Assembly: GCF_056746865.1 (NCBI RefSeq)
Contig: NZ_CM163382.1
DNA: 64,000 nt
Reading direction: 5' to 3' (one strand)
Part shown: in pieces, positions 936 to 14,173 of the stretch
How the letters are laid out: each line of letters opens with the position of its first letter
Numbering within the stretch: the stretch's first letter is position 1
The notes under the pieces: model-generated
What the model saw: only the letters and a program-made list of their open reading frames with translations
Told to the model about the DNA's origin: nothing
The model's database searches: none
Position numbers and translations under genes: made by a program

Positions 936-1454
936 ATGCCAACCCCATGTTACATTTCAATTACAGGTCAGACCCAGGGGAACATCACTGCCGGTGCTTT
1001 CACCGCAGATTCTGTCGGCAATATCTACGTGCAGGGACACGAAGATGAAATGCTGGTGCAGGAGTTTCTGCATAACGTTACTGTTCCAACCGATCCACAG
1101 TCTGGTCAACCTTCCGGGCAGCGCGCGCACAAACCGTTCATTTTCACCGTGGCGCTGAACAAAGCCGTTCCGCTGCTGTACAACGCGCTGGCCTCCGGTG
1201 AAATGCTGCCGAAAGTGGAGCTGCACTGGTGGCGTACTTCAGTTGAAGGCAAGCAGGAGCACTACTTCACCACACGTCTTACTGACGCGACGATTGTGGA
1301 CATGAACCTGCACATGCCGCACTGCCAGGACCCTGCACAGCGTGAGTTTACGCAATTGCTCGCAGTATCACTGGCATACCGTAAGGTTGAGTGGGAGCAC
1401 ATCAAATCCGGTACTTCTGGTGCCGATGACTGGCGTGCACCGCTGGAAGCATAA
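936..1454 (+). CDS. hcp: T6SS tube protein Hcp (TssD)
   Basis: 172-aa ORF MPTPCYISITGQTQGNITAGAF...HWWRTSVEGKQEHYFTTRLTDATIVDM, a typical Hcp1-family sequence. Confidence 0.9.
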   Translation: MPTPCYISITGQTQGNITAGAFTADSVGNIYVQGHEDEMLVQEFLHNVTVPTDPQSGQPSGQRAHKPFIFTVALNKAVPLLYNALASGEMLPKVELHWWRTSVEGKQEHYFTTRLTDATIVDMNLHMPHCQDPAQREFTQLLAVSLAYRKVEWEHIKSGTSGADDWRAPLEA

Positions 1455-1462
1455 ATCTGAGT

Positions 1463-1500
1463 CAACAACATCCTGCCTTCGTGCAGGATGTTGTTTTTGT
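1463..1500 (+). terminator. Rho-independent terminator after hcp
   Basis: Inverted repeat caacaacatcctgc / gcaggatgttgtt followed by a T-run. Confidence 0.6.
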
Positions 1501-1674
1501 ACGTGTAAAAAATGAGTGTCAGTAAGGAGTTACGCTTTCATGAGGGAGATGGCGGATGCCGGAAACCCGGGCGGTAGCGTACCTGAAAATGTAAAGATGA
1601 GTGTAACGCTGCACTGGCACCCTTTGCTGCATGGTAAGAATCATTTGGTCCGTGAATAAATCAGGGAGGTCATT

Positions 1675-3633
1675 ATGTCCTTAAAAGGTCTGCGCTTTAC
1701 GCTGGAGATTGACGGCCAGGAGCCGGACACCTTTGCAGTGGTGCATTTCAGGTTAATCCAGAACCAGTCTTATCCGTTTGTGATGAGTGTGGATGTTGCC
1801 AGCGACTCTTTTATGCAGACGGCGGAGATGCTGCTGGAGAAGAAGGCGACGCTGACCATCTGGCAGGGCGTCATCCCGCTGCGTTATGTCACCGGCGTGG
1901 TGGCGGGTTTTGGCATGCAGGAGAACAATGGCTGGCAGATGCGTTATCACCTGCGTATTGAGCCGCCGTTATGGCGGTGCGGGCTGCGGCAGAACTTCCG
2001 TATCTTCCAGCAGCAGGATATCCGGACGATATCGGCCACGTTACTGAACGAGAACGGCGTCACGGAGTGGACACCGCTGTTTTATGAGGACCATCCGGCG
2101 CGGGAGTTCTGTGTCCAGTACGGGGAAAGCGACCTGGCGTTTCTGGCGCGGTTGTGGGCGGAGGAGGGAATTTTCTTCTTTGAGCGGTTTGCGGCGGACA
2201 GTCCGGAGCAGAAGCTGACGCTGTGCGACGATGTGGCGGGGCTGTCACAGGCGGGAGAGCTTCCGTTTAACCCGGACACATCGGCAGGAGCGGAGACAGA
2301 GTGTGTCAGTATGTTCCGTTATGAGGCGTATGTCCGCCCGTCGTCGGTGCAGAGCCAGGATTACACGTTTAAGGTGCCGGACTGGCCGGGGATGTATGAG
2401 CAGCAGGGTGAGAACCTGAACGGACAGCTGGAGCAGTATGAGATATTTGATTATCCGGGAAGGTTCAAGGATGAACAGCACGGCAAGGATTTCACGCTGT
2501 ACCAGATGGAGAGCCTGCGCAGTGATGCGGAAAAGGCCACAGGGCAGAGTAATTCACCGAAGCTGTGGCCGGGAACGCGGTTTACGCTGACGGGGCATCC
2601 GCAGAAGATGCTGAACCGTGAATGGCAGGTGGTACAGAGTATTCTGTCAGGGGACCAGCCGCAGGCGCTGCACGGCAGCCAGGGGAGAGGAACCACGCTG
2701 GGAAATCAGTTAGAGGTGATACCGGCGGACCGGACGTGGCGTCCACGGCTGCAAAGCAAACCGAAGGTGGACGGGCCACAGAGCGCCATTGTCACCGGTC
2801 CTGCGGGAGAGGAAATCTTCTGCGACGAACACGGACGTGTGCGAGTGCAGTTTCACTGGGACAGGTATAACCCGGCAACGGAGGCGAGTTCATGCTGGGT
2901 GAGGGTGTCGCAGGCGTGGGCGGGGCCGGGATTTGGTAACCTGGCGATACCGCGCATCGGCCAGGAAGTGATTGTAGACTTCCTGAACGGCGACCCGGAC
3001 CAGCCGATAATCATGGGGCGGACGTACCATGAGGACAACCGTTCGCCGGGGAGTCTGCCGGGGACGAAGACGCAGATGACGATACGGTCGAAGACCTATA
3101 AAGGAAGCGGCTTTAATGAACTGCGGTTCGAGGACGCGACGGACAAGGAAGAAATTTACCTGCACGCACAGAAAAATATGCAAGTCGTTGTGCTGAACAG
3201 CAAGGATAAGCGGGTCAACTATGACCGGACGGTCAGCATCGGGCATGATGAATCCCTGGTGGTGGCAAATGACCGGAAAGTGACGGTTGAAGGTAAACAG
3301 GACCATAAAACCACCAAAGACCATGTCAGCCTGACAGAGGGCAATCAGGGGCTGGAGGTGAAAGGCGATCTGGCACAGAAAATAAGCGGCGCGCTGGGTA
3401 TCAGCGTACAGGGCGATATTGTTTTACAGAGCGACAGCAAAATCAGTCTGCGGGTGGGCGGTTCATTTGTGGTGATCCATTCCGGCGGCGTGGATATTAA
3501 GGGCGCGAAAATCAATCTTAACGGCGGAGGCAGTCCGGGAGACGTGATCCTGCCGATGCGCCCGGTGATCCTGAAAGCCGCAGCCGGAAGCGGGACAATG
3601 TTTGTGGCGCACTGCCCGAAGGAGGATAAGTGA
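1675..3633 (+). CDS. vgrG: T6SS spike protein VgrG (TssI)
   Basis: 652-aa ORF with the VgrG N-terminal region (LRFTLEIDGQEPDTFAVVHF...) and gp27/gp5-like content; directly downstream of hcp. Confidence 0.9.
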   Translation: MSLKGLRFTLEIDGQEPDTFAVVHFRLIQNQSYPFVMSVDVASDSFMQTAEMLLEKKATLTIWQGVIPLRYVTGVVAGFGMQENNGWQMRYHLRIEPPLWRCGLRQNFRIFQQQDIRTISATLLNENGVTEWTPLFYEDHPAREFCVQYGESDLAFLARLWAEEGIFFFERFAADSPEQKLTLCDDVAGLSQAGELPFNPDTSAGAETECVSMFRYEAYVRPSSVQSQDYTFKVPDWPGMYEQQGENLNGQLEQYEIFDYPGRFKDEQHGKDFTLYQMESLRSDAEKATGQSNSPKLWPGTRFTLTGHPQKMLNREWQVVQSILSGDQPQALHGSQGRGTTLGNQLEVIPADRTWRPRLQSKPKVDGPQSAIVTGPAGEEIFCDEHGRVRVQFHWDRYNPATEASSCWVRVSQAWAGPGFGNLAIPRIGQEVIVDFLNGDPDQPIIMGRTYHEDNRSPGSLPGTKTQMTIRSKTYKGSGFNELRFEDATDKEEIYLHAQKNMQVVVLNSKDKRVNYDRTVSIGHDESLVVANDRKVTVEGKQDHKTTKDHVSLTEGNQGLEVKGDLAQKISGALGISVQGDIVLQSDSKISLRVGGSFVVIHSGGVDIKGAKINLNGGGSPGDVILPMRPVILKAAAGSGTMFVAHCPKEDK

Positions 3634-4472
3634 TGGAAACGGCACCCGTGCAGTACGCCATTGTGGATGGCGCTGTGGAGGAAGGATTGCTGGATTTTCT
3701 GAACGAGGTGAATCCCCCGCACTGTTGTCTGTATGCAGAACCCATACAACTGGATCTGGTCGCGCTAGCCCCCTATCTCGTGGAAGTCGTTCCGGAGGTT
3801 GAAGCATGGCTGAGTGTTAAGGCGTCGCCATGGGGAATATATCTGACTTCTGAGTCATCCATGCGTGAGCTACAGCAACACTTCAGACGTTATCTGTGGG
3901 TTAGGATCCCCGAACAGGAGAAACCTGTTCTCATGCGATTTTATGATCCCCGGAATATATGGGTATTAGTGGAAGTTCTGACCCCCCGCCAGCGTCTTTC
4001 TTTTATCAGTCCCGTCAGACAGCTAAGTACCCGTTATGGTGAAGAATGTCGTGAGGATAATTTTTCTTCCGTCCGTCCCGCAGAAACTATGAATATAAGG
4101 GCAGAACGGCCATCACAACTGACGCTGAGTTACAGACAATATAGCCAACTGGAACGAAAGGCACGGGATAATTATCTTGATATATTATCTGCATTTATCG
4201 AAGAAAATGTAGATAAAAACGGATGGGATGATTCATCAAAAGCTGAATCATCCCGAATTCTGGCAGAAGATTATTTCTCTTTTTGCCAGTCATTAAATAT
4301 AGCAGATGATCGTTCCGTCAGAACAATGACGCTTATATTACTGAAAAAAAATATAATCGATCTCAGATATATTCCGGATGACTGGTATGAACAACTCAGC
4401 AATCAGTCATACCCGGGACATATTCGGGTACATGAACTTGCACAACAGGAACTGGGATTTATCCCACAATAA
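3630..4472 (+). CDS. DUF4123-family T6SS effector adaptor (Tap/Tec-like)
   Basis: 280-aa ORF overlapping the vgrG stop (ATGA); N-terminal YAIVDGA motif typical of DUF4123 adaptors. Confidence 0.7.
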   Translation: MMETAPVQYAIVDGAVEEGLLDFLNEVNPPHCCLYAEPIQLDLVALAPYLVEVVPEVEAWLSVKASPWGIYLTSESSMRELQQHFRRYLWVRIPEQEKPVLMRFYDPRNIWVLVEVLTPRQRLSFISPVRQLSTRYGEECREDNFSSVRPAETMNIRAERPSQLTLSYRQYSQLERKARDNYLDILSAFIEENVDKNGWDDSSKAESSRILAEDYFSFCQSLNIADDRSVRTMTLILLKKNIIDLRYIPDDWYEQLSNQSYPGHIRVHELAQQELGFIPQ

Positions 4473-4493
4473 AAAGACAAACGGATAGATTAT

Positions 4494-6065
4494 ATGACAT
4501 CTCCATCTTCGACAGCCGGAAAGCCCTGTGTGGAATGCGGCATTCCTGATCCATGTATTTTTGATGTTATTAGTGATTTTCCAGAGGCCGGCGAGAAACA
4601 TTTCTGGTCAAAAGAAGGAGTGGCGCGTTTTAAGCTACTGGATGATGGTTCCGGATGTGATGGTATAATTACCATTACCTACCAGTGCGATAAAAGTGGA
4701 ACACATGAGGCATGGTTAGAGGAAGAATCAGAAAATAATCATAAGATACTGCAACCTTTCGGAATACCTAATAAGGTCACTTTGGATGATAACTTGTCTG
4801 AAGGTGAAATAATTGCTATGGGTACATTTCGAGTACCATGGGATTATTTGGGGGCAATATCCTCTCCACTTAAGAATCATTATGAACCTGCCCATTATTC
4901 AGTCAGAATTGACAGTTGTTACGAATGTGGCAATTATGTTGAAATTGATGTTTATCCTACAGTGGAAATTAGGTTTACTACAGGGTTCAGCTATGAGATT
5001 TCGTCATCAAAACAGACGAGAACAGTAAAAGAGCGGCGTGACGAAAGAATAAAAGCCAGGGACGCAATGGAGAACACCAAGCCCAGGGATAAAAATAAAC
5101 TCCGTAGCGGCTGGACAAATACCACTGCTGAGTTTGAGTGGATAAACAAGACTTCCCTGACTGTCGATTTTGGCGTAAAAATAGCTAATGTTGAACACAC
5201 AAGTGAATATGAAAAAGAGATAAAAAAACTTCGACAAACAAAGCAACTGGAACAGATAGGAAGAATTGACTCTCTGGTCAAGAATGTCAATAAATATTTT
5301 GCGCCAGATCCTGACAATAATAATGGTACGCGCAAATATGCATTGTTCAGTGCAAAAATAGAACCCGTTAAACTGGGTATATCGTATGCCTATCAATATA
5401 CCGATATCCAGGATGGCCCCTGTCATTTTTATGGTTTGTTTGGTGCCCCATTTTTTGAAGCGTCGTTCAGATTCGATATTATTTCATTTATATGTGCATA
5501 TTGTAAAGTCGAGTCATTGGTCAACAGATGTCGTGAATATCTCCGTAAAAACGGAGCCAGTGTTGAATGCTATATCGAGATTTCAGCGGAGATTAATCTT
5601 GATCTTGGCGCAGTATACGCTGAAAAGGATAAAAAATGGGAGTTTAATGTAAAGGAAAGTAACATCAAGCTCGGTTTAAAAGGTGTGGTGAGTGCGACGT
5701 TTGAGGCGAATGTTTTTGTTGTACAACTGACCGCCGAAGCGACTGCCTCTATAGAAGCGAAAGCTGGATTTGGATTTGATTCACATGATGACGGACTGGA
5801 CCTAGCATTATTTCATGACGGCATTAAAGGGAAGTTTGAATTTAAGATTGATGTGTCTCATGGTGAAGTTGATGAAAAAGGAAAGGGGAAGGAAAAGAGC
5901 GAAAAACCTGAGAAGAAAGATACCGTTGAGTGGCAGTTATGTGATCCTATGGAGGTAAAGGATTCACCATTACGGGTTAATTTATACGGTAAAGAACGCA
6001 CTGTGGAGAAAAAAGTAACACCGCCGAAGCCAGTGACAACGTGGACGATAGGTATGGATTATTAA
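4494..6065 (+). CDS. Candidate T6SS cargo effector, activity unknown
   Basis: 523-aa AT-rich ORF immediately after the DUF4123 adaptor. I recognise no catalytic motif; Lys/Glu-rich C-terminus. Confidence 0.45.
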   Translation: MTSPSSTAGKPCVECGIPDPCIFDVISDFPEAGEKHFWSKEGVARFKLLDDGSGCDGIITITYQCDKSGTHEAWLEEESENNHKILQPFGIPNKVTLDDNLSEGEIIAMGTFRVPWDYLGAISSPLKNHYEPAHYSVRIDSCYECGNYVEIDVYPTVEIRFTTGFSYEISSSKQTRTVKERRDERIKARDAMENTKPRDKNKLRSGWTNTTAEFEWINKTSLTVDFGVKIANVEHTSEYEKEIKKLRQTKQLEQIGRIDSLVKNVNKYFAPDPDNNNGTRKYALFSAKIEPVKLGISYAYQYTDIQDGPCHFYGLFGAPFFEASFRFDIISFICAYCKVESLVNRCREYLRKNGASVECYIEISAEINLDLGAVYAEKDKKWEFNVKESNIKLGLKGVVSATFEANVFVVQLTAEATASIEAKAGFGFDSHDDGLDLALFHDGIKGKFEFKIDVSHGEVDEKGKGKEKSEKPEKKDTVEWQLCDPMEVKDSPLRVNLYGKERTVEKKVTPPKPVTTWTIGMDY

Positions 6066-6131
6066 GTGATATTACAGAAATTAAAAGTGAACAGTATAAT
6101 GAGTATTTTCCCCTTTTGAGAGAGAATAATT

Positions 6132-7142
6132 ATGAAGGCAAAACATTTAATATCGGTTATTTTACTGTCAGGAGTTGTTATGGGAACTGGATTTTGCTCT
6201 AACGATAACCAGCAAAAAATTCGCAGTAAGTTTAATATTGAAGAGTCATATTGTGCCATTAAGACTAATGGCGTCCTCGGGTTCAGTAACCGAAGAAGTG
6301 CCTGGCGGGCAAATGGTGATTCAACCGGGGCCATATCCAGCACCAATGCCATGATGCTGATGGCGAATGGAGAAAATGAAATCAGTCTGGAGATTGGGGC
6401 ATTAGGATGGTTTTCTGACAAGCCTGCCAGTATGGAAGAACGGGGGCGTTTTTTTCCAAAAGCAGGATGCAGCCTGGATTTGGTTCGTTTTATTAAACAG
6501 GAGGAAACGCTGCTTTCTTCAATAAAAGTGACCATCAACCAGCAGGGCATACCTGAAGCCCGGCCAGACAGCGTGCATCCCGTTATCCGGAAAGAGATTT
6601 TGGCTGAGCAGGCGGAGCCAGGATTTATTGATCCAGATTATTTTGATGAAACCTATTTCCCGAAAGGGATGAAGGTGTATCAGTTCACTCAAAAAGTTAC
6701 CGTGACAGGGCTTCCTGAATGGGCCTGGACGCGGGCAACCCCCTATACCGGAAGCGACGAGCAGTTACGGAAGTTAAAAGCCGCCTATACCGAAATGGCA
6801 AGCATCATCAGTAGCCGGGACAGGGCACGTCTGAAAGCTTATAACAAAGAGGCGCTGAAGGCATGGTCAGCCACAACCGGTGACTCTGAGGATGACATAT
6901 TACTCTCACTCTTCTCAAAAGATAATGTGGAGGGAGGGAAAGCCAGAATGCAGCCCATCAGGTGGGACGATTATGCCGTCCGGGTTATGAATGGTGGACG
7001 TATGGTGCAGCTATATAATAAATCGAAACCAATATATTCCCCACTGACTTACCGTTTTACAGATGAAAGTGGTGAAGAGCGTATGGGGTATTACGCTCCG
7101 GTATTTTCGCTGATTGATGGTCAGTTTATCCCTGTTACTTGA
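6132..7142 (+). CDS. Candidate cognate immunity protein, secreted or lipoprotein
   Basis: 336-aa ORF with N-terminal signal peptide MKAKHLISVILLSGVVMGTGFC (lipobox-like Cys); position directly after the candidate effector. Confidence 0.4.
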   Translation: MKAKHLISVILLSGVVMGTGFCSNDNQQKIRSKFNIEESYCAIKTNGVLGFSNRRSAWRANGDSTGAISSTNAMMLMANGENEISLEIGALGWFSDKPASMEERGRFFPKAGCSLDLVRFIKQEETLLSSIKVTINQQGIPEARPDSVHPVIRKEILAEQAEPGFIDPDYFDETYFPKGMKVYQFTQKVTVTGLPEWAWTRATPYTGSDEQLRKLKAAYTEMASIISSRDRARLKAYNKEALKAWSATTGDSEDDILLSLFSKDNVEGGKARMQPIRWDDYAVRVMNGGRMVQLYNKSKPIYSPLTYRFTDESGEERMGYYAPVFSLIDGQFIPVT

Positions 7143-7216: not shown

Positions 7217-8379
7217 AATTTTTTGTCGCTGATATTCCAGACAGGAAAACAATATGCCTTTAGCTGCCAGATTAAACGACAAAGGTACCGGCACAGGGAA
7301 AGATCACGTAACGCTGCTTTTTTGTACTAAATAATTCGCATTTTATGTTTAAAATTTGAGATATTCCTCATTACCTGAGGCTGTTTTTTATTACTTATAC
7401 ATGATCAAATACTCCTTACATAATTAAGGGGAACAAAATGGAACTTAAAAATTGATGGAACATATTTCTGTTATTCCCGATTACAGACAAGCCTGGAAAG
7501 TGGAACATAAATTGTCGGATATTCTACTGTTGACTATTTGTGCCGTTATTTCGGGTGCAGAAGGTTGGGAAGATATAGAGGATTTTGGGGAAACACATCT
7601 CGATTTTTTAAAACAATACGGTGATTTTGAAAATGGTATTCCTGTTCACGATACCATCGCCAGAGTTGTATCCTGTATCAGTCCTGCAAAATTTCACGAG
7701 TGCTTTATTAACTGGATGCGAGATTGCCATACTTCAGATGATAAAGACGTCATCGCAATTGATGGAAAAACGCTCCGGCACTCTTATGACAAGAGTCGCC
7801 GCAGGGGAGCGATTCATGTCATTAGTGCGTTCTCAACAATGCACAGCCTGGTCATCGGACAGATCAAGACGGATGAGAAAACCAATGAGATTACAGCTAT
7901 CCCAGAACTTCTTAACATGCTGGATATTAAAGGAAAAATCATCACAACTGATGCGATGGGTTGCCAGAAAGATATTGCAGAGAAGATACAAAAACAGGGC
8001 GGTGATTATTTATTCGCTGTAAAAGGAAATCAGGGGCGGCTTAATAAAGCCTTTGAGGAAAAATTCCCACTGAAAGAATTAAATAATCCAGAGCATGACA
8101 GTTACGCAATGAGTGAAAAGAGTCACGGCAGAGAAGAAATCCGTCTTCATATTGTTTGCGATGTCCCTGATGAACTTATTGATTTCACGTTTGAATGGAA
8201 AGGACTGAAGAAATTATGCGTGGCAGTCTCCTTTCGGTCCATAATAGCAGAACAAAAGAAAGAGCCAGAAATGACGGTCAGATATTATATCAGTTCTGCT
8301 GATTTAACCGCAGAGAAGTTCGCCACAGCAATCCGAAACCACTGGCACGTGGAGAATAAGCTGCACTGGCGTCTGGACG

Positions 8380-10270
8380 GTGTGCCGCAGGAACACAAGA
8401 TAGCTGCATAAGGATACGCAGTTAGCTTTTGTATAAGCTCATAAAGAGATGGTGGAAGGCCCACCGGGATCGGCTGTCGGAAGCAGATTCCAAACCACTT
8501 CATGCTGCTGTGGTAAAGAGCCATGGTAGTGAGCGATGAAGTAAAGCGTGAGTGAAAACTCAGCAGGTAAGATACTCATGAGACGAGTGAACCCGAACCC
8601 ATGTTGACGCGTCGTAAACCAGAGACTGACATCAAAACCGAAGGGGCGTCCAGCCTTCGGGATAAGTCTGCGAGTGAATTCCGAATGCTGCGCAGACGGT
8701 GTCCGGCGTAAAGTGGGCGTGACGGAGTATCAGGCTCTTCCTGGGAACTGCGGGAACCTGTCGTTGTGATGATAAGGGAGAAATGCAAGTCACTGAATTG
8801 GCGAGCATGAAAGTACCGATGCACAGCACAGGGACGGAGCCGTTCGTAGTAGTGATGAAGCTTCTGTAATGGAGGTGGAGCGAAGGGGCGGCATCAGACA
8901 GTCTTTGGACAGTGTTCAACTGAACATGTTCAGGAGGAGACAATGACAAAGACAAAAGCGTTTAACATTGATAAGTCACTGGTGGTCAGCGCGTACAGGC
9001 GAGTGAAGACCAGTGCAGGCGCGGCGGGAATTGATAAGCAATCGCTGGCGGACTTTGATAAACGGTTAGTTGATAATCTGTACAAAATCTGGAACCGACT
9101 TTCTTCAGGAAGTTATTTCCCACCGGCAGTGAAAGCGGTGGCAATTCCGAAGAAATTGGGTGGAGAGAGAATTCTGGGTATCCCGACAGTCAGCGATCGT
9201 ATCGCGCAGACGGTGGTAAAACTGGCCTTTGAGCCACAGGTTGAGCCACATTTTCTGGCAGACTCTTACGGCTACAGACCGAATAAATCGGCACTGGATG
9301 CTATAGGGGTAACGCGTAAGCGTTGCTGGTATTACGACTGGGTACTGGAATTTGACATCAAAGGGCTGTTCGATAACATCCCGCACGAACTGATAATGAA
9401 AGCCGTGGACAAACACAATCCGGCCCGGTGGGTAAAATTGTATATACAGCGGTGGCTGACAGCGCCGATGGTGATGTCAGACGGAGAAGTCAGAGCACGA
9501 ACAATGGGAACGCCGCAGGGAGGTGTCATAAGTCCGTTGCTGGCAAACCTGTTCATGCATTATGTGTTTGATAAATGGCTGGCAAAATATTATCCGAAAG
9601 TGCCGTGGTATCGATATGCTGATGATGGCATTTTGCATTGTCACAGCGAAGCAGAAGCGACTGAAATGCGAGAAGTATTACGCAAAAGATTTAGCGAATG
9701 CGGACTGGAAATGCATCCGGAGAAAACGCGAGTTATCTACTGCAAAGATGGAAGCCGGAAGGGTGATTATGAACATACCATGTTCGACTTTCTGGGGTAC
9801 ACATTCAGGCGACGCGTAGTAAAGAACGTTAAGCGAAACAGTCTGTTTGTAAGTTTTACCCCCGCAGCGAGCAAATCAGCGCTAAAGGCAATGCGTCGGG
9901 AAATCAAAGCGACAGGGATAAGGAAAAGAGTGGATTTAAGCATTGAGCAGATAGCGAAATGGATAAATCCAAAACTGAATGGCTGGATAAATTATTACGG
10001 GCGATATACCTGTTCGGAATTATACAGCGTGTTCAGATATATCAATAAAGCACTGGTGAGGTGGGGGCGTAAGAAATATAAAATGCTCAGCCGATACAAG
10101 ACAAGAGCCTCAAAATTTCTGGAAGAAATGGCGAAGCGAAGTCCACAGTTGTTTGCCCACTGGCGTCTGAAGATGAGAGGCGGACTTGTTTGATGGGAGC
10201 GGTATGAGCCGAGAGGTTCACGTACCGTTCTGCGAGAGGCTGCGGGGGAGGTTCCTGCGGCCTACTCACC
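8380..10270 (+). mobile_element. Group II intron (bacterial, with RT/maturase ORF)
   Basis: Boundaries from aligning interrupted copy 1 to uninterrupted copy 2: shared …cgtctggacg | intron starts GTGTGCCG … ends …cctactcacc | tggtaatgaatg resumes. Domain V-like GAGCCG…CGTACCGTTC lies just after the RT stop. Confidence 0.7.
8943..10193 (+). CDS. Group II intron-encoded reverse transcriptase/maturase
   Basis: 416-aa ORF with RT motifs (…RYADDG… YADD box) and a maturase X-domain motif (NGWINYYG). Confidence 0.85.
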
Positions 10271-10493
10271 TGGTAATGAATGAAGACGACTGCAAAATAA
10301 GAAGAGGAAATGCAGCAGAATTATTTTCAGGGATACGGCACATCGCTATTAATATTTTGACGAATGATAAGGTATTCAAGGCAGGGTTAAGACGTAAGAT
10401 GCGAAAAGCAGCCATGGACAGAAACTATCTGGCGTCAGTCCTTGCGGGGTGCGGGCTTTCGTAATCTTTCCCTGGATGTGAAAAGCAGCTGCG

Positions 10494-11779
10494 GACAGGG
10501 AAAGATCATCAGAAGTACACTTTTTGTACTAAACAATTCGCATTTTATGTTTAAAAATTGAGATATTCCTCATTACCTGAAGCTGTTTTTTATTGCTTAT
10601 ACATGATCAAATACTCCTTACATAATTAAGGAGAACAAAATGGAACTTAAAAAATTGATGGAGCATATTTCTATTATCCCCGATTACAGACAAGCCTGGA
10701 AAGTGGAACATAAATTATCGGATATTCTACTGTTGACTATTTGTGCCGTTATTTCTGGTGCAGAAGGTTGGGAAGATATAGAGGATTTTGGGGAAACACA
10801 TCTCGATTTTTTGAAGCAATATGGTGATTTTGATAATGGTATTCCTGTTCACGATACCATTGCCAGAGTTGTATCCTGTATCAGTCCTGCAAAATTTCAC
10901 GAGTGCTTTATTAACTGGATGCGTGACTGCCATTCTTCAGATGATAAAGACGTCATTGCAATTGATGGAAAAACGCTCCGACACTCTTATGACAAGAGTC
11001 GCCGCAGGGGAGCGATTCATGTCATTAGTGCGTTCTCAACAATGCACAGCCTGGTCATCGGACAGATCAGGACGGATGAGAAATCTAATGAGATTACAGC
11101 TATCCCTGAACTTATTAACATGCTGGATATTAAAGGAAAAATCATCACAACTGATGCGATGGGTTGCCAGAAAGATATTGCAGAGAAGATACAAAAACAG
11201 GGAGGTGATTATTTATTCGCTGTAAAAGGAAACCAGGGGCGGCTAAATAAAGCCTTCGAGGAAAAATTTCTGCTGAAAGAATTAAATAATCCAGAGCATG
11301 ACAGTTACGCAATTAGTGAAAAGAGTCACGGCAGAGAAGAAATCCGTCTTCACATTGTTTGCGATGTCCCTGATGAACTTATTGATTTCACGTTTGAATG
11401 GAAAGGTCTGAAGAAATTATGCGTGGCAGTCTCCTTTCGGTCAATAATAGCAGAACAAAAGAAAGAGCCCGAAATGACGGTCAGATATTATATCAGTTCT
11501 GCTGATTTAACCGCAGAGAAGTTCGCCACAGCAATCCGAAACCACTGGCACGTGGAGAATAAGCTGCACTGGCGTCTGGACGTGGTAATGAATGAAGACG
11601 ACTGCAAAATAAGAAGAGGAAACGCAGCAGAATTATTTTCAGGGATACGGCACATTGCTATTAATATTTTGACGAATGATAAGGTATTCAAGGCAGGGTT
11701 AAGACGTAAGATGCGAAAAGCAGCCATGGACAGAAACTACCTGGCGTCAGTCCTTGCGGGGAGCGGGCTTTCGTAATCT
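10494..11779 (+). mobile_element. H-repeat (ISAs1-family) element copy 2, intact
   Basis: Left IR acagggaaagatca and right IR tcttgccctg; direct orientation, about 20 bp after copy 1. Confidence 0.75.
10640..11776 (+). CDS. H-repeat-associated ISAs1-family transposase
   Basis: 378-aa [35 protein letters not shown]… uninterrupted. Confidence 0.85.
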
Positions 11780-11895
11780 TGCCCTGGTACAGTAAACAAA
11801 CGAAAGTTGTTATTTCAATGGTCAGGGCAAGAGCATGAAGTGTTTACTACACACTATGCTCTTGTCCTGGAGTCAGGTCTTGTTTGGAGGGATAA

Positions 11896-12399
11896 ATGGT
11901 AGATATTGTCGAGGCCGATAAAACGGATATTTATTTCATTCAGGAGAGTGTTTATGGCAAAATCGGGTTGCCAGCTTTTGGTAATACAATAGGACCATCC
12001 GCACAGCAAGTTGTTAAAAAGGTATTCGCTGTCGTTAAAGAACGAGATAAGACACATGCAAAACAGAGATTATTGTTGGAATATAATGGTAACAAACTCT
12101 GGATGAATGCTATTGATGGCAGTGAAGCTATCCTACCAACAGAATTTTCTAAGCGATACGAACTTTCATTATTTAATACTACTAATTTTGGAGAAGATCC
12201 TTTTCCTGATGTTAATTTATATAATAATATGAAATCAAGTTTTTTTGTAAGGTTTGGTGGAACATCCCATCCCGAGGCTTGGGCTATTTATAATGCAAGT
12301 ACGAAAGAGGTTAAATATATAGAAACTGCAAGAGAAATTGATAAAATATTCAGTGATTTTAACTTGAGTGGTACATTGCCAATTCACATTGGTCGATGA
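11896..12399 (+). CDS. Hypothetical protein, AT-rich cargo
   Basis: 167-aa ORF in a low-GC segment between H-repeat elements; no recognisable motif. Confidence 0.35.
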   Translation: MVDIVEADKTDIYFIQESVYGKIGLPAFGNTIGPSAQQVVKKVFAVVKERDKTHAKQRLLLEYNGNKLWMNAIDGSEAILPTEFSKRYELSLFNTTNFGEDPFPDVNLYNNMKSSFFVRFGGTSHPEAWAIYNASTKEVKYIETAREIDKIFSDFNLSGTLPIHIGR

Positions 12400-12465
12400 T
12401 TTTTTAAATTGTGTGATTAAATAATTGAACATTAATGATGATTTATAGCATTATTATTCTATAAC

Positions 12466-12978
12466 ATGAATAAACGGATTGAATGTGTTATGTTAAAAAT
12501 AAGTTTATACGTAATAATATTGTTATTTTCCTTTCAGATTAGTGCAGCCATTACTAGCAAGGAAAGTGAGGTTGTTTCACCATTATTAATGGATGTTAAT
12601 TCTTCACTAACAATGGAAAATATTTCTGAATTATCCACATCATCGGAACCATCGCAACAGGGGGTATTTCCTGTAATATGTACTCGACTTCATCCTGGCT
12701 CCGTAATGAAACGCCAGTTATTAACCGGCTGGGGGCCTGTTTTTATAATTGGTGATGATCCTTTTTCTCTGCGCTGGATGAGTGAACATCTGGAGATCCT
12801 TAAATCGCTAAATGCCCTTGGTTTGGTTGTTAATGTTGAATCAGTAGAACGAATGGAGGTATTACAGCAGCGGGCTGATGGGTTATTGTTATTGCCAGTT
12901 ATCTGCGATAATTTCGTGCAAACTCTGCAATTAAATGCTTATCCGGTATTAATCACAGAGATGGAAATATCACAATGA
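12466..12978 (+). CDS. Hypothetical secreted/membrane protein
   Basis: 170-aa ORF with a hydrophobic N-terminal segment (ISLYVIILLFSFQISAAITS); low GC. Confidence 0.35.
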   Translation: MNKRIECVMLKISLYVIILLFSFQISAAITSKESEVVSPLLMDVNSSLTMENISELSTSSEPSQQGVFPVICTRLHPGSVMKRQLLTGWGPVFIIGDDPFSLRWMSEHLEILKSLNALGLVVNVESVERMEVLQQRADGLLLLPVICDNFVQTLQLNAYPVLITEMEISQ

Positions 12979-12994
12979 TTAATAACATAATTAC

Positions 12995-13215
12995 TGCAAA
13001 TAATATCGTAATTTTGAAAATGGTAATTCTGTTCACGGCACCATAATTAGAGTTATGTCTTGTATCCGTTCAGTATAATTTCACGAATGCTTTATTAACT
13101 GGATGCGAGATTGCCATTCATCAAATGATAAAGACGTCATCGCAATTGATGGAAAAGCGCTTCCACACTCCTATGATAAAAGTGGTCGCAGGGGAGCGGG
13201 CTTTCGTAGTCTTAG
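12995..13215 (+). pseudogene. Internally deleted H-repeat transposase remnant (position equivalent to K-12 yafF)
   Basis: Matches the ENGIPVH…[10 protein letters not shown]…SRRRGA segment, then jumps to the element 3' end (…ggagcgggctttcgtagtct…); junction at a short ggggagcg microhomology. Confidence 0.6.
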
Positions 13216-13249
13216 CCCGACTCTCCCCGGCCCTAAACACAACACCCAC

Positions 13250-14020
13250 TCACCACAACCTAAACTCATCCGCATCCCGCCATGCCGGAAACTTTTCTCT
13301 ATATTCCCGCAATGCCGCCATCGACAGCTCCGCATCAATGCGCGTTGCCTGATGCGCGTCGGCGGTGGCGATAATCTCGCCCTGTGGATTAATCACCCGG
13401 CTGTCACCGCGATAATGGCAGCCGTTGCCATCGCTGCCGACGCGATTGCATCCCGCCACATACGCTTGATTCTCAATCGCGCGGGCCGTCAGCAATGCCT
13501 GCCAGTGCAGAGAGCGCGGAGCCGGCCAGTTGGCGACGTACAGGGCGAGGTCGTAATCGTTGAGATTGCGCGACCACACAGGAAAACGTAAGTCGTAGCA
13601 CACCAGCGGCAAAATACGCCAGCCGCGCCATTCCACAATCACTCGCGCATTGCCCGCTTTATAATGCAGATGCTCATCTGCCATGCGGAACAGATGACGC
13701 TTATCATAAAAATGTACCGTGCCGCCTGGCTCAACCAGCAAAAAGCGGTTAACCGAACCAGACTCCGTTTGTAATGCAACACTGCCTGCAATCAGCGCAT
13801 TGCACTGCTGCGCTTTGGCTGTCATCCAGTTCACTACGTCATCTTGTGCTAGCGACGAAGCTGCCGCTTCCATGGCAAAGCCGCTGGTAAACATCTCCGG
13901 TAGAACGATCACATCGCGTCCGGTAATATCTTCCAGTTGACGATCAAAATGACGCAGGTTGGCAGGACCATCCATCCACACCAGTGGTTGCTGCAAAAGC
14001 GTAATCTTCAAACCAGGCAC
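13250..14020 (-). CDS. yafV: Carbon–nitrogen hydrolase family protein (omega-amidase) YafV
   Basis: ORF 13250..14029; probable GTG start giving [22 protein letters not shown]…, 256 aa, as in K-12 YafV. Confidence 0.85.
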
Positions 14021-14173
14021 GGTGTACAACTCCTTTATGCGAAGGGTTTTATAACTTTAACACCTTATCAGGCAGTTGCCTTAGCGCAGAATAAATTGAT
14101 AACAAATGCTGATATTGGAAATATCTGATTTGCAAATTATCGTGTTATCGCCAGGCTTTAGGAGGTTAATAAC

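Follow-up and report, generated by a model that had tools for sequence, protein, structure and literature searches.

A candidate type VI secretion effector and envelope partner encoded by a two-gene cassette at the yafV end of an Escherichia coli T6SS-1 island

Several small cargo effectors of type VI secretion systems (T6SS) are paired with immunity proteins of the membrane or periplasm, among them the pore-forming Ssp6/Sip6 and Ssp4 families of Serratia and the Pse2/Psi2 pair (PMC6889166, PMC12669606, PMC9796082). Pse2/Psi2 of Pantoea agglomerans is a domain-less bicistron that ends the T6SS1 cluster, and it has been shown experimentally to be an effector-immunity pair (PMC9796082). Here we describe a two-gene cassette of comparable layout, ORF1-ORF2, in a stretch of 64,000 nucleotides from NCBI RefSeq assembly GCF_056746865.1, contig NZ_CM163382.1 (the whole stretch is called the window). 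The cassette consists of two adjacent open reading frames (ORFs) of 167 and 170 amino acids (aa), and the region is Escherichia coli chromosome, 100% identical to many complete genomes. The original prediction, made without database searches, had suggested a toxin/immunity-like pair enclosed by H-repeats, which are insertion sequences (IS) of the ISAs1 family.

Our best explanation, held tentatively and rated a little below even, is that ORF1 and ORF2 are a T6SS cargo effector and its envelope immunity partner, the latter exchanged in Escherichia for a protein of the DUF2859 family. The two genes would form one horizontally acquired cassette at the yafV-proximal end of the T6SS-1 island. ORF1 would be a small (19 kDa) cargo effector from a family not described before; the T6SS would carry it in the secretion tube and deliver it, with the envelope of the target cell as its site of action. 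ORF2 would be the cognate protective partner, exported to the periplasm by means of its signal peptide, and its domain, a predicted redox-inactive thioredoxin fold, would have been co-opted from MPF_G conjugation modules. Because the partner is a four-helix inner-membrane protein in every other genus examined, the immunity partner would have been swapped in Escherichia, and with this swap would coincide the loss of about 35 aa from within the effector. The H-repeats would be later insertions at recombination boundaries; effector modules upstream would be exchanged there, with the cassette remaining constant. Secretion and toxicity of ORF1, an envelope target and neutralisation by ORF2 are what this reading would predict.

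ORF1, ORF2 and their families

Both ORFs are real genes under purifying selection. ORF1 is preceded at 8 nt by a GGAGG Shine-Dalgarno sequence, and an open frame of 167-170 codons has, at this base composition, a chance probability of about 1.5e-6 for each gene. Between the window and a second Escherichia allele, the ratio of nonsynonymous to synonymous substitution rates (dN/dS) was 0.30 for ORF1 (dS 0.58), 0.33 for ORF2 (dS 0.40) and 0.13 for the neighbouring gene yafV (dS 0.076). The physical description in the original prediction held exactly: a 167-aa ORF with no hydrophobic segment (maximum KD19 0.51) and a 170-aa ORF with a hydrophobic N-terminus lie in a low-GC segment (GC fraction 0.347 and 0.374, compared to 0.523 for the window and 0.551 for yafV), bounded by the end of H-repeat copy 2 and by a partial third copy. 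Its view that their function was unknown still fits ORF1, which belongs to no named family. It does not fit ORF2, because this protein is a member of DUF2859/TIGR03765. The profile and structure searches that had been proposed as a check placed ORF2 in DUF2859 and returned neither a family model nor a PDB fold neighbour for ORF1.

ORF1 had no match in Pfam, NCBIfam, PADLOC, PHROGs or the PDB sequences, and a word-indexed search returned Escherichia copies only. An exhaustive phmmer search of 1.84 billion representatives found 31 relatives of 36-217 aa, among them a group of 163-217 aa with identities of 24-40%. These relatives make up a family without a name, about 190 aa in length and with most members in Enterobacterales; the named ones, in Serratia, Morganella, Pantoea, Rahnella and Erwinia, are all annotated as hypothetical. 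A metagenome scan with one family alignment (A5) gave no confirmed relatives. In another alignment (A1), residues E17, G99, D101, P102, L108 and Y109 are invariant; the conserved N-terminal motif reads G-I-Y-x-I-x-E...G-L-P-x-L-G-N-T-I-G-P-S and the C-terminal one G-x-D-P-x-P-x-x-x-L-Y...G-G...P-T-A. An internal stretch of about 35 aa is missing from both Escherichia alleles, and since the deletion is the same in the two, it is a long-standing trait of the subfamily, not a sign of recent decay. The Escherichia proteins are acidic, with an isoelectric point (pI) of 5.9 (E. coli ORF1 has a mass of 18.9 kDa); two other family members computed as basic, at 9.2-9.3. AlphaFold2 gave a beta-rich model of ORF1 with a predicted local distance difference test (pLDDT) score of 81.7 and a predicted template modelling (pTM) score of 0.76.

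Several identities for ORF1 were considered and rejected. A known defence or phage family was set aside as PADLOC gave nothing for ORF1, ORF2, the family members or their partners, and PHROGs likewise gave no match for ORF1. Kinship with the lytic transglycosylase that precedes DUF2859 in integrating conjugative elements (ICEs) scored an hhalign probability of 0.8%. Serratia Ssp3/Tfe1 (20.6 kDa) has its immunity gene, sip3, upstream and its activity is antifungal. ORF1 was not Hcp-like by comparison. Literature searches on the protein accessions and on DUF2859/TIGR03765 returned no functional study.

ORF2 is 162 aa long when read from the start codon ATG at 12490 chosen by the NCBI Prokaryotic Genome Annotation Pipeline (PGAP). 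It scored 120.6 bits against TIGR03765, the PFL_4695-family integrating conjugative element protein (cutoff 59.75), and 99.5 bits against PF11072 (DUF2859; cutoff 25, E=2e-28). On these profile matches ORF2 is a new member of a known family, here outside its usual context. Its single hydrophobic segment, at the N-terminus (KD19 2.17), looks like a Sec signal peptide, with predicted cleavage between ..FSFQISA and A. In the AlphaFold2 model, built from a 25-sequence alignment, this is followed by a low-confidence linker and then by a confident domain at residues ~65-170 (pLDDT ~90) with a predicted thioredoxin-like fold. CXXC is absent from the domain; the start of helix 1 instead reads GDDPFSLRW, and the GDD, S and W of this stretch are invariant across the DUF2859 family. 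With GDDxxSxxW at the CXXC position, the domain would therefore be a redox-inactive thioredoxin fold.

The cassette in Escherichia

Intact ORF1 and ORF2 were present in 553 of the 5426 complete E. coli genomes, the second allele in 12 more, and the pair also in E. whittamii. A blastn comparison of the window with the second allele (for example in loci L002 and L024) showed 76% DNA identity over exactly the cassette, from 41 bp ahead of ORF1 to the stop codon of ORF2. The flanking IS and yafV DNA was 95-97% identical (yafV itself 97%).

The surroundings of the cassette vary. The second allele has no H-repeat upstream, and a full-length ISAs1 lies downstream at a different junction. Upstream of it are a WD40-like protein, a 411-aa protein with weak similarity to TIGR02270 and a 137-aa cytoplasmic thioredoxin (WCNNC), with no IS between these neighbours and the cassette (L002 6931-9576, L024 8927-11617). 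The E. whittamii counterpart (L012 2464-4139) has a 414-aa gene and a thioredoxin, then ISAs1, then ORF1-ORF2. Strain Tig207 carries, upstream of the cassette, PAAR-like/beta-propeller pairs with TIGR02270-like and thioredoxin proteins in series. The avian pathogenic E. coli (APEC) strain O1 has another upstream effector module (DUF2169, PAAR-like) followed by the same ISAs1, ORF1, ORF2, H-repeat fragment and yafV. TIGR02270 has been reported fused to a class of T6SS adaptors (PMC7714669), and a TIGR02270-like neighbour fits the region being T6SS accessory DNA. Where such a thioredoxin gene lies upstream, as in the second allele and in E. whittamii, ORF1 stands between two proteins of the thioredoxin fold: one is cytoplasmic and redox-competent, the other, ORF2, exported and redox-dead.

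At all Escherichia loci examined with an intact ORF1, ORF2 lies directly downstream. Since the pair is constant across loci whose upstream modules differ, the cassette is the constant terminal unit of the island. Read together, these arrangements indicate that H-repeats mark the boundary at which upstream effector modules are exchanged, the cassette always being the final unit ahead of yafV. In some 190 genomes, a type I secretion system/large repeat protein (adhesin) island that ends in an IS630 remnant stands in place of ORF1 and all that precedes it, and only 12444-12990 of the window remains. ORF2 in the genome of this kind that we examined (L025, 8136-9754) is a frameshifted pseudogene with a 1-bp deletion and a nonsense codon. 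This breakage of ORF2 where ORF1 is deleted is consistent with functional coupling. The same ORF1-less arrangement occurs in a chromosomal yafV-ivy-fadE segment on the IncFIB plasmid pCP127 of E. coli EC93 (L014).

These comparisons also bear on the H-repeats. Copy 3, downstream of ORF2, is 81-84% identical to the other copies, compared to 95-96% between copies 1 and 2. The first 320 bp or so of the element are missing from it, and an internal deletion removes about 745 bp, so that element positions ~322-522 are fused to the last ~25 bp (12998-13198 aligns with 10814-11014, and 13191-13213 with the 3' end of the element at 11758-11780). Its yafV-side junction is shared with E. coli K-12, which has neither ORF1 nor ORF2 and where the remnant is the pseudogene yafF. 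The H-repeat insertion beside yafV therefore appears old and to have eroded differently from lineage to lineage. K-12 yafF (L031 5191-5379), compared with 13191-13225 of the window, corresponds to the 3' end of ISEc1/H-repeat. Copy 3 is an old fragment. H-repeat sequence does enclose the ORFs in this strain, but they do not replace the 5' part of the third element, contrary to what had been suggested. A composite transposon, or carriage of the pair as H-repeat cargo, was rejected for several reasons: the downstream copy is merely a 216-bp decayed fragment and not a competent IS, the alternative allele has no upstream IS and a different downstream junction, and the right junction is the same in K-12, which has no cassette. 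The ORF1-ORF2 pair is neither carried by nor substituting for H-repeat sequence.

We considered whether the pair might be a decayed remnant, with ORF1 as a member of the ~190-aa family that was disarmed or orphaned, ORF2 as an unrelated ICE/MPF_G leftover, and the two as chance neighbours at the edge of the island. The missing 35 aa or so and the lack of a partner with four transmembrane (TM) helices would suit such a history, as would the IS copies, group II intron and pseudogenes around the pair and the orphan immunity-like genes that other strains have in arrays just upstream. Many strains, including K-12, also do without the pair, and roughly 190 genomes have a broken ORF2 only. However, dN/dS stays at about 0.3 over a dS of 0.4-0.58 with all family-invariant residues kept, both genes diverge as a single block with sharp edges, the deletion shared by the two alleles is an old trait of the subfamily, and no other ICE gene lies nearby at the loci examined. 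We consider a remnant unlikely.

An improbable alternative, to about the same degree, is that both genes are functional and not cognate, ORF2 being, for example, an orphan periplasmic immunity or protective protein directed at another effector of the envelope, and ORF1 an orphan effector, adaptor or immunity protein whose partner is encoded elsewhere. The ends of T6SS islands do gather orphan immunity genes, as in the Pantoea example (PMC9796082), and the series of beta-propeller, TIGR02270-like and thioredoxin genes upstream in Tig207 points the same way, as does the usual partner of the family, which is a 4-TM protein and not DUF2859. Set against this are the constant adjacency of ORF1 and ORF2 in Escherichia (both alleles and E. 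whittamii), their joint divergence, and the broken state of ORF2 where ORF1 is absent.

ORF1 relatives in other genera and the effector reading

Outside Escherichia, each of the ORF1-family members examined (13/13) adjoins a polytopic membrane protein of 104-161 aa, mostly with four predicted helices. This partner is usually encoded downstream with overlapping stop and start codons, sometimes convergently and once upstream. The module lies 10-17 GC points under its host locus in 8 of 10 loci compared. Often there is a third gene of about 100-119 aa (L004 11021-11380, L017 6455-6796, L021 7001-7330, L019 6986-7288), which encodes a DUF805 membrane protein in three of these four loci and has no Pfam hit in L019.

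Linkage to T6SS genes was found for the pair and for its homologs, as was adjacency to a small partner gene. The genome-contig scan gave 6 loci, and the T6SS association rests on about 12 lineages, which do not amount to a census. Four lineages besides Escherichia lie beside T6SS genes, namely hcp, tssBC, DUF4123/PAAR and a Tlde1-hcp islet. The family member P0028 starts 16 bp past an orphan hcp. P0038 is placed directly 3' of tssB-tssC within a T6SS core cluster. Behind it come its 4-TM partner, three proteins with signal peptides, a 126-aa ORF weakly similar to CHAP, further candidate pairs, tagJ and tssE. P0046 forms an overlapping operon with a DUF4123 adaptor, with a PAAR gene close by, and the Pantoea copy is 3 kb from the Tlde1-hcp islet. 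On the Joint Genome Institute (JGI) metagenome contig L018 (1-12579), the T6SS core cluster has no recognisable hcp after tssB-tssC. That place is taken by the effector/immunity-like island with the ORF1-family gene, the 4-TM partner, the three signal-peptide proteins and the 126-aa CHAP-like ORF; a 275-aa protein with a glycine-rich hydrophobic C-terminus also belongs to it, and tagJ and tssE come after.

Other family members form solitary islets between housekeeping genes, for example between can and hpt in Morganella, downstream of katG in Serratia and beside sseK1 in Salmonella. The last of these, in Salmonella Senftenberg (L016 6959-7630), is a partial ORF1-family gene (119 aa) with a convergent 4-TM partner, between the type III secretion system effector gene sseK1 and rpoC; the record is labelled as a plasmid and looks chromosomal, because it also carries the thi operon and rpoBC.

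A T6SS-independent two-gene system, working in abortive infection or defence (cytosolic sensor, membrane effector) or in membrane stress and having T6SS neighbours by coincidence, is the least probable explanation of those considered: most family loci are indeed solitary two- or three-gene islets (ORF1-family, 4-TM, DUF805) amid housekeeping genes, and the modules are AT-rich and mobile in character, but PADLOC and PHROGs gave no hits, no defence genes flank the loci examined, and four independent non-Escherichia lineages sit next to hcp, tssBC, DUF4123/PAAR or Tlde1-hcp, one of them in a core cluster.

We favour the reading of ORF1-ORF2 as effector and envelope partner because the family is of the size to be expected, has a partner gene that is always adjacent, is AT-rich and mobile in character and is repeatedly linked with T6SS genes. 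The family size of 165-217 aa is within the range generally described for Hcp-carried cargo. The signal peptide of ORF2 predicts export, and its predicted fold is like that of periplasmic thioredoxin-type proteins.

A number of observations weigh against this reading. ORF1 has no recognisable toxin domain or motif, and its model has no structural neighbour in the PDB and no known toxin fold. None of the 31 phmmer relatives is fused to Rhs, VgrG, PAAR, Hcp or CdiA, and none forms the C-terminal domain of an Rhs, VgrG, PAAR or CdiA protein. A search for homologs downstream of Rhs or VgrG C-terminal tips, as the original prediction had advised, found them neither fused nor directly downstream, and all 31 are stand-alone proteins of at most 217 aa. 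About 7 of the 12 lineages occupy ordinary sites on the chromosome, and no T6SS gene lies within 6-10 kb of them. Effectors that are homologous normally have homologous immunity proteins as well, and a partner of wholly different fold and topology, as here, is unusual. DUF2859 has no known immunity role, its usual setting being conjugation. The loss of a conserved segment of about 35 aa and the shift in pI from basic to acidic (9.2 to 5.9) could mean that the original activity was lost, and the decay of ORF2 after loss of ORF1 may reflect a single lineage event.

The toxin/immunity-like pairing first suggested for the two ORFs thus survives in part. The family partner, the repeated T6SS neighbourhoods and the co-diverging cassette speak for it indirectly, while the supposed link to Rhs or VgrG, carriage by H-repeats and the anonymity of ORF2 were not borne out. 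The unnamed family around ORF1 may reasonably be put forward as a candidate new T6SS effector. A more specific proposal is that the ORF1 family comprises new Hcp-carried, envelope-acting effectors normally countered by a four-helix immunity protein, and that in Escherichia, alongside a reshaped effector, a redox-dead DUF2859 protein from conjugative elements took the place of this immunity protein; we regard it as possible and rather doubtful. As part of this proposal, the family would have a fold that is, judging from the predicted model, unlike any solved structure, with a conserved core centred on E and D residues (E17, GxDPxP...LY).

Island setting and comparison with described systems

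The annotation by PGAP of an identical locus runs tssC, tssB, hcp, vgrG (partial), DUF4123 adaptor, two genes for hypothetical proteins, an ISAs1 pseudogene that a group II intron (ltrA) cuts in two, an intact ISEc1, ORF1, ORF2, an ISAs1 fragment, and then yafV, ivy and fadE. This order therefore puts ORF1-ORF2 at the yafV-proximal end of the aspV-yafV T6SS-1 island. PGAP labels ORF1 'hypothetical protein' and ORF2 'integrating conjugative element protein'. Coordinates are collected in Table 1.

Table 1. Features of the island end, in window positions.
Feature	Position	Strand	Basis
Upstream T6SS-1 effector region, whole	936..7142	+	PGAP annotation of identical locus
hcp (T6SS-1 effector region)	936-1454	+	PGAP annotation of identical locus
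vgrG (PGAP: C-terminally incomplete)	1675-3633	+	PGAP annotation of identical locus
DUF4123 adaptor	3630-4472	+	PGAP annotation; DUF4123 E=1.7e-25
523-aa protein without known domain	4494-6065	+	PGAP annotation of identical locus
336-aa protein without known domain	6132-7142	+	PGAP annotation of identical locus
H-repeat copy 1, interrupted by group II intron	7319..10474	+	blastn pieces 7319-8379, 10268-10474
Group II intron in H-repeat copy 1	about 8380-10270	+	Rfam RF01999 at 8451-8568, RF00029 at 10195-10270
ltrA reverse transcriptase/maturase	8943-10193	+	PGAP annotation
ISEc1 (ISAs1 family, 'H-repeat') copy 2, complete; upstream boundary of cassette	10493..11786	+	1294-bp match to complete element of locus L024
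Transposase of ISEc1 copy 2	10640-11776	+	PGAP: ISAs1-like element ISEc1 family transposase
ORF1-ORF2 cassette	11855..12978	+	blastn against alternative allele: block diverging as a unit
ORF1, 167 aa, cytoplasmic; candidate T6SS cargo effector	11896..12399	+	Open reading frame; relatives of ~190 aa
ORF2, 170 aa; candidate periplasmic immunity/partner protein	12466..12978	+	Open reading frame; DUF2859/TIGR03765 matches
Decayed third H-repeat fragment; downstream boundary of cassette	12998..13213	+	Repeat families D1, D5; PGAP: ISAs1 pseudogene, internal stop
yafV, core gene, right edge of island	13250..14029	-	PGAP annotation

A profile search gave a weak Tla1 match in the upstream effector region. 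The 523-aa and 336-aa proteins after the DUF4123 adaptor had no Pfam or NCBIfam match; they are also uncharacterised, and are probably a DUF4123-dependent effector and its immunity protein. The group II intron sits within H-repeat/ISAs1 copy 1 and cuts its transposase gene in two. A promoter and terminator scan of 11600-13300 gave counts not above the shuffled expectation.

If the effector reading is true, the T6SS arsenal of Serratia, Morganella, Pantoea and Erwinia, with remnants in Salmonella, would gain an uncharacterised effector family, which roughly 10% of E. coli, APEC and extraintestinal pathogenic (ExPEC) lineages among them, also carry. For DUF2859, found widely in conjugation modules, it would offer a first lead to function. 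The more specific proposal above would amount to a rare documented replacement of an immunity partner, in which an accessory protein of type IV secretion is exapted into T6SS warfare. Since DUF2859 adjoins a lytic transglycosylase in ICEs, that proposal would also hint at a protective or inhibitory role for it in the periplasm there. The layout of the T6SS-1 island, a constant terminal cassette with upstream modules exchanged at H-repeat boundaries, helps to annotate these islands. The scope is modest: T6SS effector families are already known in large number, and no current model is challenged.

Compared with the orphan toxin-immunity modules of Rhs/H-repeat (ISAs1, ISEc1) loci, the cassette is similarly AT-rich, placed by H-repeats and located in a T6SS effector region. 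Unlike them it has no Rhs core or tip, its relatives are never C-terminal domains of larger toxins, and its alternative allele has no upstream H-repeat.

Canonical DUF2859 genes lie inside an MPF_G module, which in pEB102 runs pilL, DUF2275, TIGR03759, lytic transglycosylase, DUF2859, restriction endonuclease, traD and TIGR03747. In contrast, no conjugation gene is near ORF2 at any Escherichia locus examined, and it is paired with ORF1 in a T6SS island. ORF2 aligns with the ICE and plasmid members at 26-37% identity, rising to 44% over the C-terminal domain (tblastn), and is without their conserved LNVIADLGG motif. It shares the N-terminal signal peptide of these members and keeps the DUF2859/TIGR03765 invariants P69, V70, P77, G78, R83, the GDD motif, W104 and YPVLIT. 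Periplasmic thioredoxin-fold proteins of the TlpA/ResA/DsbE/CcmG class are the other close known system for ORF2.

ORF1 differs from the T6SS effectors described so far in that no sequence or fold similarity to any of them was found, and it differs from Pse2 in having no transmembrane helix. In arrangement, the ORF1 family resembles Ssp6/Sip6, Ssp4 and Pse2/Psi2: a bicistronic pair that lacks known domains, and that closes a T6SS cluster or lies next to hcp, encodes a small candidate effector, cytoplasmic in the producer, together with an envelope partner.

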